Origin: an uncultured Planctomycetia bacterium
Lineage (GTDB): Bacteria; Omnitrophota; Gorgyraeia; 2-02-FULL-51-18
Length of the DNA: 64,000 nt
Direction: 5' to 3'
NCBI GenBank assembly: GCA_964642015.1
Contig: CAZXLF010000001.1
Span: 116,846-180,845 of the forward strand
The notes under the pieces were generated by a model that worked only from the letters and a program-made list of their open reading frames with translations, searched no databases and had not been told where the DNA came from. This document shows positions 34,504-59,256 of this stretch, piece by piece (position 1 is the first letter of the stretch; each line of letters begins with the position of its first letter). Both the position numbers and the translations under genes were made by a program.

Positions 34504-34737
34504 ATGGCAAATAAGGAAAATAAATACGGCGATAATGTGGCAGGCGCTTTTTACGTTGATACACAGTGTATCGATTGCGATCTTTGCCGCCAGACAGCGC
34601 CCAACAATTTTGATAGAAACCAGAGCGGTGGATACTCATTCGTGAAAAAGCAGCCGACGACCCCCGAAGAAGAGGCGCTTTGCAAAGAAGCGAAAGAGGG
34701 TTGCCCAGTCGAAGCGATAGGTAACGACGGTCCGTAA
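34504..34737 (+). CDS. small single-cluster ferredoxin
   Basis: 77 aa with CIDCDLC ... CP spacing typical of a 3Fe/4Fe-4S ferredoxin. Good SD (aaggagag). Confidence 0.7.
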   Translation: MANKENKYGDNVAGAFYVDTQCIDCDLCRQTAPNNFDRNQSGGYSFVKKQPTTPEEEALCKEAKEGCPVEAIGNDGP

Positions 34738-34764
34738 TTTCGATATTAAAGTAAAGCATTCCTT

Positions 34765-34798
34765 GTAGGGGCAATTCACCGATTGCCCCTACTTTTTT
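34765..34798 (+). terminator. rho-independent terminator after the ferredoxin gene
   Basis: gtaggggcaat-tcaccg-attgcccctac followed by tttttt. Confidence 0.6.
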
Positions 34799-34814
34799 AT
34801 GTTAGGATAATGTC

Positions 34815-45790: not shown

Positions 45791-46582
45791 ATGAAAAAAA
45801 ATAGTTTTGTGTTTTTGGTTATGGCTATGATCCTGGTTTCGGGCTGCGGACAAAAGGCAGCTGAAAATGCGCCGGCGGAATCATCTGCTTCCGTCCCGAC
45901 GGAAAATAAAACTGCTCCGGCTCAGCAGCCGATCGACGCAGCGACGGCCGGTACTGTGAAAGGAAAAGTGTCTTTTCAAGGCACGACCCCCGCGGTTCAA
46001 GAGATCTCTGTGCTCGGGAATCCTGAATGCGCGGTTTTCCATCCAGACGGAAAGGTAAAGTCCGAAGAACTTATTGTGTCCGACGGCGCTTTACAGAATG
46101 TGTTCGTTTATGTGAAGGAGGGTCTTGAGGGCCGAAGTTTCCCGACGCCTACAGAACCTGTGACGATTGAGAACAAAGGATGTCTTTATGTGCCCCATGT
46201 GATAGGCGTTCAAGTTAACCAGCCGGTAATTCTCTTGAATAACGACCCGACGCTTCATAATATTCACTCTTATTCTAAAAATTCCAAACCGTGGAATTTA
46301 GGTTTACCGATCCAAGGTATGAAACAAACCAAGAAATTTGAAGCGGCCGAAGTGATGGTGCCGATGAAATGCGATGTGCATCCGTGGATGAGAGGTTATA
46401 TCGGTGTTCTGCCTCATCCTTATTTTGCCGTGACCGGCAAAGACGGAACGTTTGAGATAAAGAATCTCCCGCCGGGCGAATACTTGATCGAGGCGTGGCA
46501 TGAAAAACTTGGGGTCCAATCTCAGAAGATCAAGATCGAACCCCAAGCATCAAAGGAAATAGAATTTAAATTCAGCGTTTAA
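45791..46582 (+). CDS. lipoprotein with a CarboxypepD_reg-like C-terminal domain
   Basis: Lipobox LVSGC. FEIKNLPPGEYLIEA resembles the carboxypeptidase-regulatory-like fold motif. It also has a C-x2-H-x2-M motif (CDVHPWM). Confidence 0.5.
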   Translation: MKKNSFVFLVMAMILVSGCGQKAAENAPAESSASVPTENKTAPAQQPIDAATAGTVKGKVSFQGTTPAVQEISVLGNPECAVFHPDGKVKSEELIVSDGALQNVFVYVKEGLEGRSFPTPTEPVTIENKGCLYVPHVIGVQVNQPVILLNNDPTLHNIHSYSKNSKPWNLGLPIQGMKQTKKFEAAEVMVPMKCDVHPWMRGYIGVLPHPYFAVTGKDGTFEIKNLPPGEYLIEAWHEKLGVQSQKIKIEPQASKEIEFKFSV

Positions 46583-47205
46583 ACGCTCGTTCCTACCTTA
46601 GGTGAAATCTTAATGAGATGCCAGATTGCCGCAGTGCCTATCACAATAGCCACAATAAGCGTCAATGGGTTTATAGCACCATAGGCATGGGGTGCCAACA
46701 TCGCGAAAAGCAGCGGCGCTGAGAGAAAAGTATTCGTTCTGGATGCTAACGAGGCGCGTTTGCGTACGCCGGGGAGCTTGTCAGCAGGAACTTTGCCTTG
46801 GAGCATGGATTTTTGTGCGGGCCAAATAATGAACCATACATTAAACCACATGATAGAGCCTAGTGTCATACCGAACATTATCCAAAGAGCTCTTGCAGAA
46901 ATACCTTCAGTGGTTGAAAACAAAGCGCTCGGGCCAAAACCTGTCCCAGGTGTATACATGTACACCAGAGTGAACAAACACCAGCCGGTGATGAAAGTCA
47001 TCATCGCTCCCCAGCGGAACCACCACAGCGCTCGAGGCATCAGCTTGGGGTTAACGAGTTTTTTTCCGGCGTCATCCAGCGCCCCCTGGAGAGGAACGTT
47101 CACGAAATTGAAGAAATAAAGATGTCCGATCCAAATAATTCCGAAAAAAATGTGCATCCAACGCAAAAGAAACTGAACGTTGGTATACCAGTCTGATAAA
47201 GCCAT
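46579..47205 (-). CDS. polytopic membrane protein, COG3748 / DUF989-like (urate-hydroxylase N-terminal-like)
   Basis: Start taken at ATG 47205 because it has a strong SD (acaggaggaagcATG). The track's 47262 start has none. HIFFGIIWIGHLYFFNF is a conserved His-containing first helix. Confidence 0.45.
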   Translation of the reverse strand: MALSDWYTNVQFLLRWMHIFFGIIWIGHLYFFNFVNVPLQGALDDAGKKLVNPKLMPRALWWFRWGAMMTFITGWCLFTLVYMYTPGTGFGPSALFSTTEGISARALWIMFGMTLGSIMWFNVWFIIWPAQKSMLQGKVPADKLPGVRKRASLASRTNTFLSAPLLFAMLAPHAYGAINPLTLIVAIVIGTAAIWHLIKISPKVGTSV

Positions 47206-47308
47206 GCTTCCTCCTGTTATCATTTGTCCAGACAAAACCGATTTAAACACATGATAAAACAAAATATGCTTTTAGACAAGCCGTTTTTGAGTCTTAGAAG
47301 CCAAAAAA

Positions 47309-47325
47309 ACACAAAATATAGTGGT
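47309..47325 (+). promoter_or_regulatory. NrdR-box-like imperfect palindrome upstream of nrdJ
   Basis: acacaaaatatagtggt resembles the NrdR-box consensus acaCwAtATaTwGtgt, with about 10 of 14 positions palindromic. Only one box is evident. Confidence 0.25.
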
Positions 47326-47340
47326 TTTTTAAAAAATTGC

Positions 47341-47370
47341 TTGACACTACCACAAGAGCGGGTTTATACT
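47341..47370 (+). promoter_or_regulatory. sigma70 promoter of nrdJ
   Basis: TTGACA at 47341-47346, an 18-nt spacer, then TATACT at 47365-47370. Confidence 0.5.
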
Positions 47371-47401
47371 TCAAAACAGGTTCGATCATTAATTTTTTTT
47401 G

Positions 47402-47443
47402 AAACGGAATTGTCGCGCAGTGAGGCGATACTCCGTTTTTTTC
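47402..47443 (+). terminator. terminator-like hairpin in the nrdJ 5' leader (candidate attenuator)
   Basis: aaacgga ... tccgttt (7-bp outer stem, with an inner tcgc/gcga stem) followed by ttttttt. It lies between the -10 element and the ATG at 47526. Confidence 0.4.
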
Positions 47444-47525
47444 GTCAAAGGTCTCATTAAAAGTTTTCAAAGCTGTTATTTTACGGCAAAAGATCAACGA
47501 ACTTTACGTCACGAGGAGAAGCAAA

Positions 47526-50500
47526 ATGCAGAATGGCTCGAAAGTCAAAAGCGCCGCGCAGGGTAATGCCACGATCTCAGGCGATATGAAAGGGATGAAG
47601 TTCGAACGCCGTTACACGAAGCCCAGCGTGAATCCTTTGGACGCGATCACATACGAAAAAAGAAGTTCGGTAATTTCAAATACGGACGGTTCGGTGGTGT
47701 TCAAGATGGAGAACGCCGAGATCCCCAAGTCCTGGTCACAGCTGGCCACTGATATTGTGGTCTCCAAATATTTCCGCAAAGCCGGAGTCCCGCATACGGG
47801 TTCCGAGGTCAGCGTCCGCCAGGTGGTCCACCGCATCGCGCATTCGCTGCGCAAAGCAGGAGAGGATTTCGGCGGATATTTCCGTACTACCGAGGATGCT
47901 GATACATTCGAAGCCGAGCTTACTCATCTTTTAGTGACACAAAAAGGCGCTTTCAATTCACCGGTATGGTTCAACTGCGGTTTGGCCGAGACTTACGGGA
48001 TCAAGACCGGCTCAGGCGGAAGCTATGCGTGGGATTTCAGGAAAGGCGCGCCGAATCTTACGAAAGATTCTTATACACACCCTCAATGCTCTGCCTGCTT
48101 TATTCAGAAAGTTGAAGACGACCTCATGTCGATCTTTGATCTGGTAAAAAATGAGGCGCGTCTTTTTAAATTCGGTTCGGGCACGGGTTCTAATTTTTCA
48201 AAGATCCGCGGACGCCAGGAAAAGTTATCCGGAGGCGGCACTTCTTCGGGGCTCATGTCATTTTTGGAAGTACTTGACCGTGGAGCCGGCGCAACAAAGT
48301 CCGGCGGTACGACACGCCGCGCGGCGAAGATGGTGTGCCTTGATATGGATCATCCGGAGATCGCGGATTTCATTAATTGGAAAGTCAGGGAAGAAAAGAA
48401 AGTTGCGGCGCTCATCGCAGCCGGCTATTCTTCGGACTTCAACGGCGAAGCTTATAAGACGGTTTCAGGTCAGAACTCCAATAATTCAGTACGTATTTCC
48501 GATGATTTCATGAAAGCCTATCTGGAAGGCGGGCAGTGGCAGACCCGCTTCAGAACGACCGGAGAAGTGAGCGACACCTATGAAGCGCGCGATCTGATGC
48601 ACCAGATCGCTTATGCGGCGTGGGCCTGCGCCGATCCCGGAGTGCAGTTCGACACGACGATCAATGACTGGCACACCTCGGTGAACACCGACAGGATCAA
48701 CGCTTCGAATCCCTGCTCTGAATATATGTTCCTCGATGACAGTGCCTGCAATCTGGCGTCGATCAATTTGATGAAATTTTTGAACGATGACGGTACTTTT
48801 GATGTTGAAAGCTACCGCCATGCGTGCCGCATTTTCATTACGGCTCAGGAAATCCTTGTTGATTATTCCTCTTATCCTACACAAGCGATCGCGCAGAACA
48901 GCCACGATTACCGGCCGTTGGGTTTGGGCTACGCGAATCTAGGGACTCTTTTGATGGTGAAGGGTATTCCATATGATTCCGAAAGAGCTTTCGCGATCTG
49001 CGGCGCCATCACCGCGATCACGACCGGTCATGGGTATCGCGCATCGGCTGAGATCGCCAAGCATAAGGGACCGTTCCCCGGCTACGCGCACAACGCTGAG
49101 CCCACACTGCATGTAATGAAAAAACACCGCGACGCGGCATACAAGATTAACGAAAAGGCATGCCCGTCGGAGATGCTCAAAGCTGCGCACGAAGATTGGG
49201 ATGAAGTGGTTCGTCTCTGCGAGAAGTACGGCGTCCGCAACGCACAGGCCACCGTGATCGCGCCCACCGGCACGATCGGGCTTTTGATGGATTGTGATAC
49301 GACAGGTATTGAGCCCGATTTTTCGCTGGTAAAATTCAAGAAACTTGCCGGCGGCGGGTATTTTAAGATTGTGAATCAATCCGTGACGCGCGCGCTTGAA
49401 AATCTTGGTTACCGTGAGGACCAGATCCGCGATATCGTGACATATGTGACCGGCACGCTGACACTTGACGGCACGCCTCACATCAATCCGGCGACTCTGA
49501 AAGAACGCGGATTCACCGATGAAGATATTGAAAAGGTTGAGGGGAATATCCCCGGTGTTTTCGAGCTCCAATTCGCTTTCAACAAATGGACTCTTGGCGA
49601 AGAGACAATGAAACGCCTCGGCCTCAAAGAAGAACAATACAATGACTTCAATTTTAACATGCTTGAAGCGCTCGGATTTACCGACAGGCAGATCTCTGAA
49701 GCTAATGATGTTGTTTGCGGACGCATGACGATCGAGGGCGCTCCGGGACTTAAATCGGAGCACTTGCCGGTATTTGATTGCGCCAACAAGTGCGGAAAAT
49801 ACGGCAAGCGTTTCATTGCTCCGATGGGACATATCCGCATGATGGCCGCTGCCCAGCCGTTTATTTCAGGCGCGATCTCGAAGACCGTTAATCTTCCCAA
49901 TGAAGTTACTGTCGAAGACATTGAGAAGATCTATGTGGAAAGCTGGAAGCTCGGTTTGAAAGCCGTGGCGCTTTACCGCGACGGGTGCAAACTTTCGCAG
50001 CCTTTGAATTCCGGCGCTTCGTCGGGTTCGAAGAGCGATCCCGCGGCGGAGGTCGAAGCTGTTCCGAGCCGCCATCGTTTGCCGAAGAAACGCGCAGGCC
50101 TCACGCAAGAGGCGCGCATCGGCGGGCATAAAGTTTACGTCCGCACCGGTGAATATGAGAACGGCGGCTTAGGCGAGATCTTCATTGATATGCATAAAGA
50201 AGGCGCGGCGTATCGCAGCATGATGAACTGTTTCGCGATCGCGGTCTCCTTAGGATTACAGTACGGCGTGCCTTTGCAGGAATACGTGGATGTATTCACC
50301 TTCACGCGTTTTGAGCCGTCAGGGCCGGTGGATCATCCCAATATCAAGTTCGCGACCTCGATCGTGGATTATATTTTCAGGCTGCTTGCGATGGAATATT
50401 TAGGCCGTCATGATCTTGTGCAGGTGCCTCCGATGGGAGCGACGACGGATGTGACGTTGCCTCCGCCAACGCATAAACCGAAGAAGCAAACGCATCATCC

Positions 50501-50696: not shown

Positions 50697-50724
50697 AACC
50701 CGTTTTTTAAGAGTAAGACCTTTA

Positions 50725-50760
50725 AGGGGCCCAAAGATATTCGGGCCCCTTTTTGTTTTT
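50725..50760 (+). terminator. rho-independent terminator of nrdJ
   Basis: aggggccc-aaagatattc-gggcccct followed by ttttgttttt. Confidence 0.8.
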
Positions 50761-59197: not shown

Positions 59198-59222
59198 AAA
59201 ATAGCCGGATCGGAAAAACAAC

Positions 59223-59256
59223 AGGCGCGCTTGAAAAAGCGCGCCTTTCTTTTTTC
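59223..59256 (+). terminator. rho-independent terminator
   Basis: aggcgcgctt-gaaa-aagcgcgcct followed by ttctttttt. Confidence 0.8.

Follow-up and report, generated by a model that had tools for sequence, protein, structure and literature searches.

A conserved terminator-type hairpin in the leader of a class II ribonucleotide reductase gene (nrdJ), downstream of a promoter with an NrdR-type box, in a clade of probable Omnitrophota

Bacterial ribonucleotide reductase (RNR) genes are controlled mainly at initiation by NrdR, Fur, DnaA and FNR, and sometimes by riboswitches. Cobalamin riboswitches are found upstream of B12-independent nrd operons, for example Streptomyces nrdABS, and the 2'-deoxyguanosine riboswitch of Mesoplasma florum controls RNR. 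Plain, partial intrinsic terminators are also known to serve as attenuators, as in the E. coli ampC leader, at rplL-rpoB, and in the S10 leader, where attenuation depends on L4 and NusA. At RNR promoters, NrdR reportedly acts at tandem 16-bp boxes, which Rodionov and Gelfand are said to have described in 2005.

NrdR requires two boxes for its action, and C4, A6, T11 and G13 together with an A/T-rich centre are important for binding (PMC13584703). Linkers of 15-16 bp predominate between the two boxes, and pairs with 26-27 bp linkers are bound too (PMC13584703). Among RNR genes, the nearest example of post-initiation control is Pseudomonas aeruginosa nrdAB, whose long 5' UTR lowers mRNA level and stability, and in which no Rho-independent terminator was predicted (PMC12528414). 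No paper that we found describes a leader attenuator at nrdJ or RNR regulation in Omnitrophota.

In this study, we analysed one stretch of DNA of 64,000 nucleotides (hereafter the window) and compared its nrdJ region with related loci. The NrdR part of this region is a known system in an unusual layout, and the hairpin in the nrdJ leader is clade-restricted and belongs to no described RNA family. Like P. aeruginosa nrdAB (PMC12528414), the locus would combine an NrdR-regulated RNR gene with a post-initiation layer in the 5' UTR; in contrast to that 5' UTR, a terminator-type hairpin is the defining feature here. With a conserved terminator-type hairpin before nrdJ, a B12-dependent RNR would gain a checkpoint at transcription elongation, in a lineage whose phylum is uncultured and poorly understood. 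The element is small and clade-restricted, and its practical value is modest.

The nrdJ gene and its promoter

The nrdJ product contains the Pfam domains Ribonuc_red_2_N, Ribonuc_red_lgC and TSCPD (Table 1). We searched for NrdJ in genome and metagenome contig collections, where the best identity was 72-77%, from many phyla, and in a large protein collection, which returned the exact protein (P0001) and 17 relatives with 80-88% identity. Where these 80-88% relatives are named, they are Candidatus Omnitrophica/Omnitrophota, and the source bacterium probably belongs to Omnitrophota. DNA was obtained for nine of the ten relatives sought, and for two copies of the same organism (L161, L162). The NrdR boxes and promoter blocks were aligned and scored in 10 loci (the window and 9 relatives). 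The hairpin was compared in 11 loci of the 80-88% clade, and one locus, L173, stood outside the training set of the covariance model described below.

The gene order DnaJ, CarboxypepD_reg-like, Urate_ox_N-like (minus strand), nrdJ is maintained in most relatives. Because the Urate_ox_N-like gene is divergent from nrdJ, the leader hairpin cannot be the terminator of the upstream gene. At the other end, an intrinsic terminator begins 28 nt past the nrdJ stop codon, which indicates that nrdJ is monocistronic. Canonical terminators consisting of a hairpin and a T-run are used at gene ends in this genome, nrdJ included. The context TCAC-n-AGGAGAA at the nrdJ start is common to several relatives.

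The original prediction had placed a near-consensus promoter, TTGACA-18-TATACT, ahead of nrdJ. We found this promoter in the window and conserved in the relatives, where CTTGAC and TA.A.T are invariant or nearly so. A promoter scan of bases 1-60000 revealed only one other site with 11/12 matches. Transcription of nrdJ would start at about 47377, predicted as 7 nt past the -10 element, and the promoter scan of the window found no second promoter between the hairpin and the nrdJ ATG. Two further promoter readings were rejected by eye: TAAAAT in the A/U-rich block of some relatives comes with no -35 element and is absent from the window, and TGAAAC...CGTC has a 38-nt spacing, too long for an ECF-type promoter.

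Table 1. Features of the nrdJ region. Positions are those of the window unless a locus is named.
Feature	Position	Strand	Basis or remark
Urate_ox_N-like gene	46579-47205	-	divergent from nrdJ, upstream neighbour
NrdR-type box 1, full 16-bp palindrome ACACAAAATATAGTGG	47309-47324	.	14/16 vs acaCwAtATaTwGtgt
Sigma-70-type promoter TTGACA-18-TATACT	47341-47370	+	11/12 consensus matches; -35 TTGACA 47341-47346, 18-bp spacer, -10 TATACT 47365-47370
Putative NrdR box 2	47350-47365	.	only left half CCACAAG (47350-47356) conserved; in promoter spacer
Leader hairpin with U7 tract, intrinsic-terminator-type, proposed attenuator	47401-47442	+	fold and conservation
Conserved block after the U-tract: (A/C)GTC(TC), then A/U-rich stretch, consensus CATAAAAnnTTTTTAAAAT	47443-47479	+	
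Shine-Dalgarno AGGAG; nrdJ start codon ATG	47514-47518; 47526-47528	+	read from sequence
nrdJ, class II (adenosylcobalamin-dependent) ribonucleotide reductase, 1056 aa	47526-50696	+	Pfam PF08471, PF02867, PF12637
nrdJ 3' intrinsic terminator, GGGGCCC..GGGCCCC then T-run	50724-50757	+	
Giant genes near nrdJ	L167:6671-8231, L172:6689-8159, L171:6714-8168, L173:5893-8028		

NrdR-type boxes at the nrdJ promoter

Box 1 is the top-scoring site of the whole 64-kb window, and C4, A6, A8, T9, T11 and G13 are all present. It ends 16 bp upstream of the -35 element. The box scores 13-14/16 in all 10 loci, and L173 carries it too. Of 151 distant loci, about 55 also carry the motif of box 1 ahead of nrdJ. 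Using blastn and nhmmer, we found that box 1 is the sole part of the window leader that recurs outside the clade, and that the remaining leader has no sequence homology there.

This palindrome had been read as a single NrdR-like box. The NrdR-type motif was borne out by its recurrence upstream of distant nrdJ genes, but the box is not single, as an invariant half-box, CCACAAG, lies 25-26 bp downstream. The half-box is identical in 10/10 aligned loci, the linker to box 1 measures 25 bp in the window and 25-26 bp in the relatives, and full boxes at other loci, such as CCACAAGATATTGTGG, have the same letters as their left half. Scored as a full box, the site, with its degenerate right half, reaches 9/16 in the window, and the relatives reach 6-8/16. 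C4 and A6 are kept in 10/10 loci, A8 in 6/10 and G13 in 7/10, and the A/T-rich centre is missing. In the window clade, no second full NrdR box was found at the usual 15-16 bp distance. Weighing the invariance of CCACAAG and the fixed linker against the degenerate centre, we consider box 1 well supported as an NrdR operator element, and box 2 plausible but unproven in this role.

The arrangement resembles known NrdR operators in having a 16-bp palindrome with the six positions given above at an RNR promoter, in having a putative second element an integral number of helical turns away, and in the presence of the same motif upstream of nrdJ in many phyla. It differs in that the second box is the half-site CCACAAG with a G/C-rich centre, and in that the linker is 25-26 bp instead of the usual 15-16 bp, near the 26-27 bp variant reported to be bound. 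Box 2 lacks the A/T-rich centre and often lacks G13, both reported to be important (PMC13584703), and this counts against binding of NrdR at the half-box. A natural NrdR operator made of one full box, a half-box and a 25-26 bp linker would bear on what NrdR binding requires.

Standard tandem NrdR pairs, 31-32 bp apart, were found in several distant loci (L018, L006, L001). L001 contains a more distant Omnitrophota nrdJ (77% identity, N-terminal part), and it shows two standard boxes with a 15-bp linker (L001:2839-2885) and a short leader with no hairpin. This layout indicates that the half-box with its 25-26 bp linker and the leader hairpin apparently co-occur only in the 80-88% clade. Many distant nrdJ loci among L001-L160 (e.g. 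L114, L115, L065, L145, L136, L156) have their NrdR boxes 170-280 nt before the start codon, which implies long nrdJ leaders in those loci. No Rfam family was found in six long-leader distant loci, or in L001, L002 and L006. A tblastn search with an E. coli NrdR query detected no nrdR in the 64-kb window or in the 8-kb loci of the close relatives, and the same search showed that nrdR adjoins nrdJ in 7 distant loci.

Conservation and covariation of the leader hairpin

The two-part hairpin with a 7-U tract that had been predicted before the nrdJ ATG was confirmed, and its U-tract ends 83 nt upstream of the ATG. The hairpin (G47401-U47439) consists of an outer stem of 8 pairs, the closing G.U included, and an inner stem of 6 pairs. 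The T7 run (47436-47442) overlaps the 3' end of the hairpin and continues past it, and a U8 run is located just 5' of the hairpin. The fold of segment 47400-47445 has a dG of -17.2 kcal/mol (z = -3.56), which was equalled by 1 of 200 shuffles. The fold of the whole leader was no better than shuffles (z = -0.2). The whole leader is thus not unusually structured, and the hairpin is the sole structure there.

Leaders of orthologous nrdJ genes might have lacked any conserved structure, and this was one refutation named in the original prediction. We found the hairpin conserved, with covariation, in 11 loci. The intergenic DNA is mostly unalignable among the relatives, and what is conserved is a fixed series of blocks: AAAAACACAAAATATTGTGGTTTTT (NrdR-type box 1), an A/T-rich linker, CTTGACA, CCACAAG, TATACT, a variable stretch of 15-43 nt, and the hairpin, followed by (A/C)GTCTC with the A/U-rich block and the ribosome-binding site. 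A typical hairpin among the relatives reads AACGGAAGTATC..loop..GATACTTTCGTTTTTT. The terminator-type hairpin with its U-tract is present in 11/11 clade loci, with dG values from -7.6 to -21.8 kcal/mol. In 11 of the 12 copies the stem is directly followed by 5-8 U, the exception being L170 (UUUGUU), and the 5' flank is A-rich. A stable hairpin with an adjacent U-tract and an A-rich 5' flank fits the definition of an intrinsic terminator.

In the alignment fitted to the covariance model, 88.8% of the cells are paired, compared with 42-54% in slid controls. Ten of the 14 pairs changed on both sides, and 0/500 shuffles reached the observed score. A structure-blind MAFFT alignment gave 87.9% paired cells, compared with 37-53% when the 3' partners were slid (37-54% overall), and six pairs change on both sides in it. 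RNAalifold found the same helix de novo and predicted no structure in the block after the U-tract. In several copies, the stem arms are replaced wholesale by other complementary sequence (GCGCC/GGCGC in L168, AAACGAAAGC/GCTTTCGTTT in L164, and also in L165 and the second L169 copy), and the U-run is kept. This replacement points to selection on both the structure and the U-tract. The leader hairpin is a selected RNA structure.

An inverted repeat near a promoter could also act at the DNA level as the operator of a dimeric protein, or have no function and be there by chance or as a neutral remnant. The spacing of the arms ranges from about 7 to 27 nt, which does not suit a DNA operator, and neither do the arms swapped for unrelated complements in L168, L164 and L165. 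Furthermore, the stem contains 13 G.U cells and 4 A.C cells. In DNA, or in RNA of the opposite strand, the G.U cells would fail to pair, and the U-tract is found on the plus strand only, indicating that the structure is plus-strand RNA and not duplex DNA. The shuffle and slide controls exclude chance, as does conservation amid intergenic DNA that is otherwise scrambled. We therefore regard an operator or a neutral remnant as highly improbable.

From the hairpin together with the block that follows it we built a covariance model, which scores 62.8 bits on the window copy (47392-47479), matches L173 at E = 2.5e-7 and picks up the second copy in L169; the layout of L173 agrees by eye. The model found no further copy in the 64-kb window, and in all the loci searched its matches were confined to nrdJ leaders, so a dispersed repeat or mobile hairpin (REP or MITE-like) was rejected. 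The model gave no matches in 45 nrdJ loci at <=77% identity or in 11 viral loci. In viral contigs, the hairpin pattern gave 0 matches, and a loose promoter pattern gave 11 chance matches, none of them with a model match. The hairpin element is clade-specific and is absent from the nrdJ loci at <=77% identity.

Terminators were also compared in the 151 more distant nrdJ loci. A sense-strand terminator lies within 300 nt in 22 of them, compared with 14 for the antisense strand. In the distant loci with an NrdR box, the terminators are mostly located upstream of the box and belong to the upstream genes. Thus, there is no general pattern of a leader terminator at nrdJ.

One relative, L169, has an NrdJ of 84% identity and different upstream genes. 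Its leader of 302 nt contains two tandem modules (L169:1177-1268 and L169:1338-1412), each with a hairpin, a U6 run, GTCTC and the A/U block.

Candidate functions of the hairpin

The original prediction suggested that the terminator is controlled by a riboswitch-like or protein-dependent antiterminator. Riboswitch control would have precedents, since a leader terminator is the usual expression platform of riboswitches, and B12 riboswitches on nrdAB-type genes and the 2'-dG riboswitch are known for RNR. As in riboswitch-controlled RNR genes, which often use a terminator, control would lie in the 5' leader; unlike them, this locus has no aptamer and no Rfam match, and the RNA before the hairpin is too short. 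At gathering thresholds, Rfam gave no match in the window or in 20 related loci (10 close relatives included). The cobalamin family was covered as well, in agreement with the earlier observation that no B12 box is evident. A permissive search (E up to 10) of 47100-47700 gave only chance-level matches with E > 0.6.

The predicted RNA 5' of the hairpin comprises 7-37 nt that are not conserved, and it is 7-10 nt long in L163, L168, L170 and L173. This segment is purine-rich, as is the 5' arm, and therefore cannot pair with the arm. We folded the nascent RNAs of the 11 loci for the mutually exclusive terminator and antiterminator structures that a switch would need. The hairpin is the minimum free energy structure in 11/11, with a mean pair probability of 0.86-0.98, and no competing cis antiterminator fold was found in these RNAs. 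The loop differs between copies in both sequence and length; it has 7-16 nt unpaired, except in L170, where it is longer and contains a stem of its own. A leader peptide was not found either: the leader has no ATG, and its only ORF is a TTG-started 55-codon frame with no ribosome-binding site. Since the 5' RNA is short and unconserved, the hairpin dominant and the loop variable, a riboswitch or a cis attenuator sensing a ligand or tRNA through mutually exclusive folds is unsupported. This part of the prediction is largely refuted, and we give it hardly any weight.

With no competing structure or ligand pocket in cis, read-through would be either fixed and partial or set in trans. We lean, by a small balance of probability, towards a promoter repressed by NrdR and, after it, a leader attenuator with read-through that is constitutive and partial or is set by a trans factor. 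In this model, a strong sigma-70-type promoter would drive nrdJ alone. The NrdR operator would bracket this promoter, with box 1 upstream of the -35 element, the 25-26 bp linker, and half-box 2 in the spacer, and NrdR loaded with dATP/ATP would occlude the promoter. In transcripts from about 47377, the stable hairpin would form after about 25 nt, at 25-65 nt of the RNA, with U7 directly after it. The hairpin probably stops some transcripts early, and as an intrinsic terminator it would release an RNA of about 65 nt. Only the read-through RNA, with about 150 nt of leader in total, would carry nrdJ and end at the 3' terminator, so the element would act as a leader attenuator. Read-through may be a fixed partial value that damps the near-consensus promoter. 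Alternatively, it may be set in trans by an RNA-binding protein, by Nus factors or by NTP-dependent elongation kinetics. We infer NrdR binding, termination and any regulation of read-through from the conserved features described above.

This proposed attenuator resembles those of ampC, rplL-rpoB and S10 in having a stable hairpin and a U-tract between promoter and gene. No leader peptide or antiterminator is involved in either case, and the output here would likewise be the read-through fraction or the effect of a trans factor on the elongation complex. It differs from them in that there is no sequence relationship, and in the gene class (class II RNR) and the phylum.

Several observations count against the model. 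A terminator with no switch, placed before a presumably essential gene, needs leakiness or a further factor, and the two serial hairpins in L169 are hard to square with efficient constitutive termination. The leader loops have 7-16 nt unpaired, compared with 4-9 nt in the gene-end terminators of this genome, and the larger loops suggest that termination efficiency may be low. In addition, conservation continues past the U-tract into (A/C)GTCTC and the A/U block (consensus in the relatives: (A/C)GTCTC-N5-7-CATAAAAnnTTTTTAAAAT), which termination alone does not explain.

The conservation past the U-tract would fit a post-transcriptional mRNA element, in which the hairpin is a stabilising or processing stem-loop, and the U-tract and A/U block are sites for Hfq, RNase E or ribosomal protein S1. 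In L164, L165, L166 and L168, which have short leaders, the A/U block immediately precedes the Shine-Dalgarno sequence, and the two L169 copies would be easier to tolerate if they did not terminate. However, stabilisers at the 5' end must lie within a few nt of it, whereas the segment predicted here is variable and 7-37 nt long, and the second L169 copy lies more than 150 nt downstream. The 5-8 U abutting the stem in 11/12 copies and the A-rich 5' flank are the signature of a terminator, and RNAalifold did not pair the hairpin region with the ribosome-binding region. We consider this reading rather unlikely, though it ranks first among the alternatives to the attenuator model. By eye, the pairing needed for an anti-Shine-Dalgarno role of GUCUC is weak, and CsrA-type GGA motifs are not consistently present.

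Another explanation is that the promoter and terminator delimit a small RNA in its own right, about 65 nt long and controlled by NrdR, and that nrdJ is reached by incidental read-through. The U8-hairpin-U7 arrangement of the window is the layout of Hfq-binding small RNAs, and the strong promoter with no second promoter would also suit this explanation. But the single-stranded 5' segment, which would be the seed, is conserved in neither sequence nor length and is reduced to 7-10 nt in the four relatives named above; the loop is unconserved, and the upstream U-run is missing in most relatives. Furthermore, the element is always found before nrdJ and nowhere else. The element does not match an Hfq-type small RNA, given that a terminator and poly-U are present but no conserved single-stranded seed is, and a small RNA of any type appears quite unlikely.

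Returning to the attenuator, a more specific and more speculative version holds that, in Omnitrophota, the hairpin is targeted by a new factor that acts in trans, either promoting or preventing termination, and ties the synthesis of class II RNR to a cellular signal. We rate this as unlikely, a little below the post-transcriptional element and above the small RNA. An RNA-binding protein might play this part, perhaps by binding the 5' arm, which is rich in purines and contains GGA; NTP-sensitive behaviour of RNA polymerase at the A-rich start of the RNA and along the U-tracts is another candidate. Nucleotide pools, the supply of B12 or the growth rate might serve as the signal. If true, such a factor would provide a second, RNA-level control layer on top of NrdR, and would explain a conserved and, in L169, even duplicated terminator with no cis antiterminator before a presumably essential gene.

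Other terminators were noted in the window. The Urate_ox_N-like gene has a minus-strand terminator hairpin of 18 pairs (46507-46548) inside the 3' end of the convergent plus-strand gene 45791-46582, and the two ORFs overlap by 4 bp. A G+C-rich hairpin of 10 pairs at 59222-59247 is flanked by T-runs on both strands, indicating a bidirectional terminator. A strong 12-pair terminator at 34764-34799 lies 22 nt before the next gene (34815). It was considered as a second leader terminator and rejected, as it is the ordinary gene-end terminator of a small ORF of about 77 aa (34505-34739), which is unlisted, Cys-rich and, by eye, ferredoxin-like.

The DNA 3' of nrdJ varies among the relatives. In several of them, giant genes with called products of 6,000-9,500 aa start shortly 3' of nrdJ (Table 1), and an OGG/HhH-GPD gene precedes the giant gene in L167, L171 and L172. 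The window carries FMN reductase and peroxidase genes at this place.
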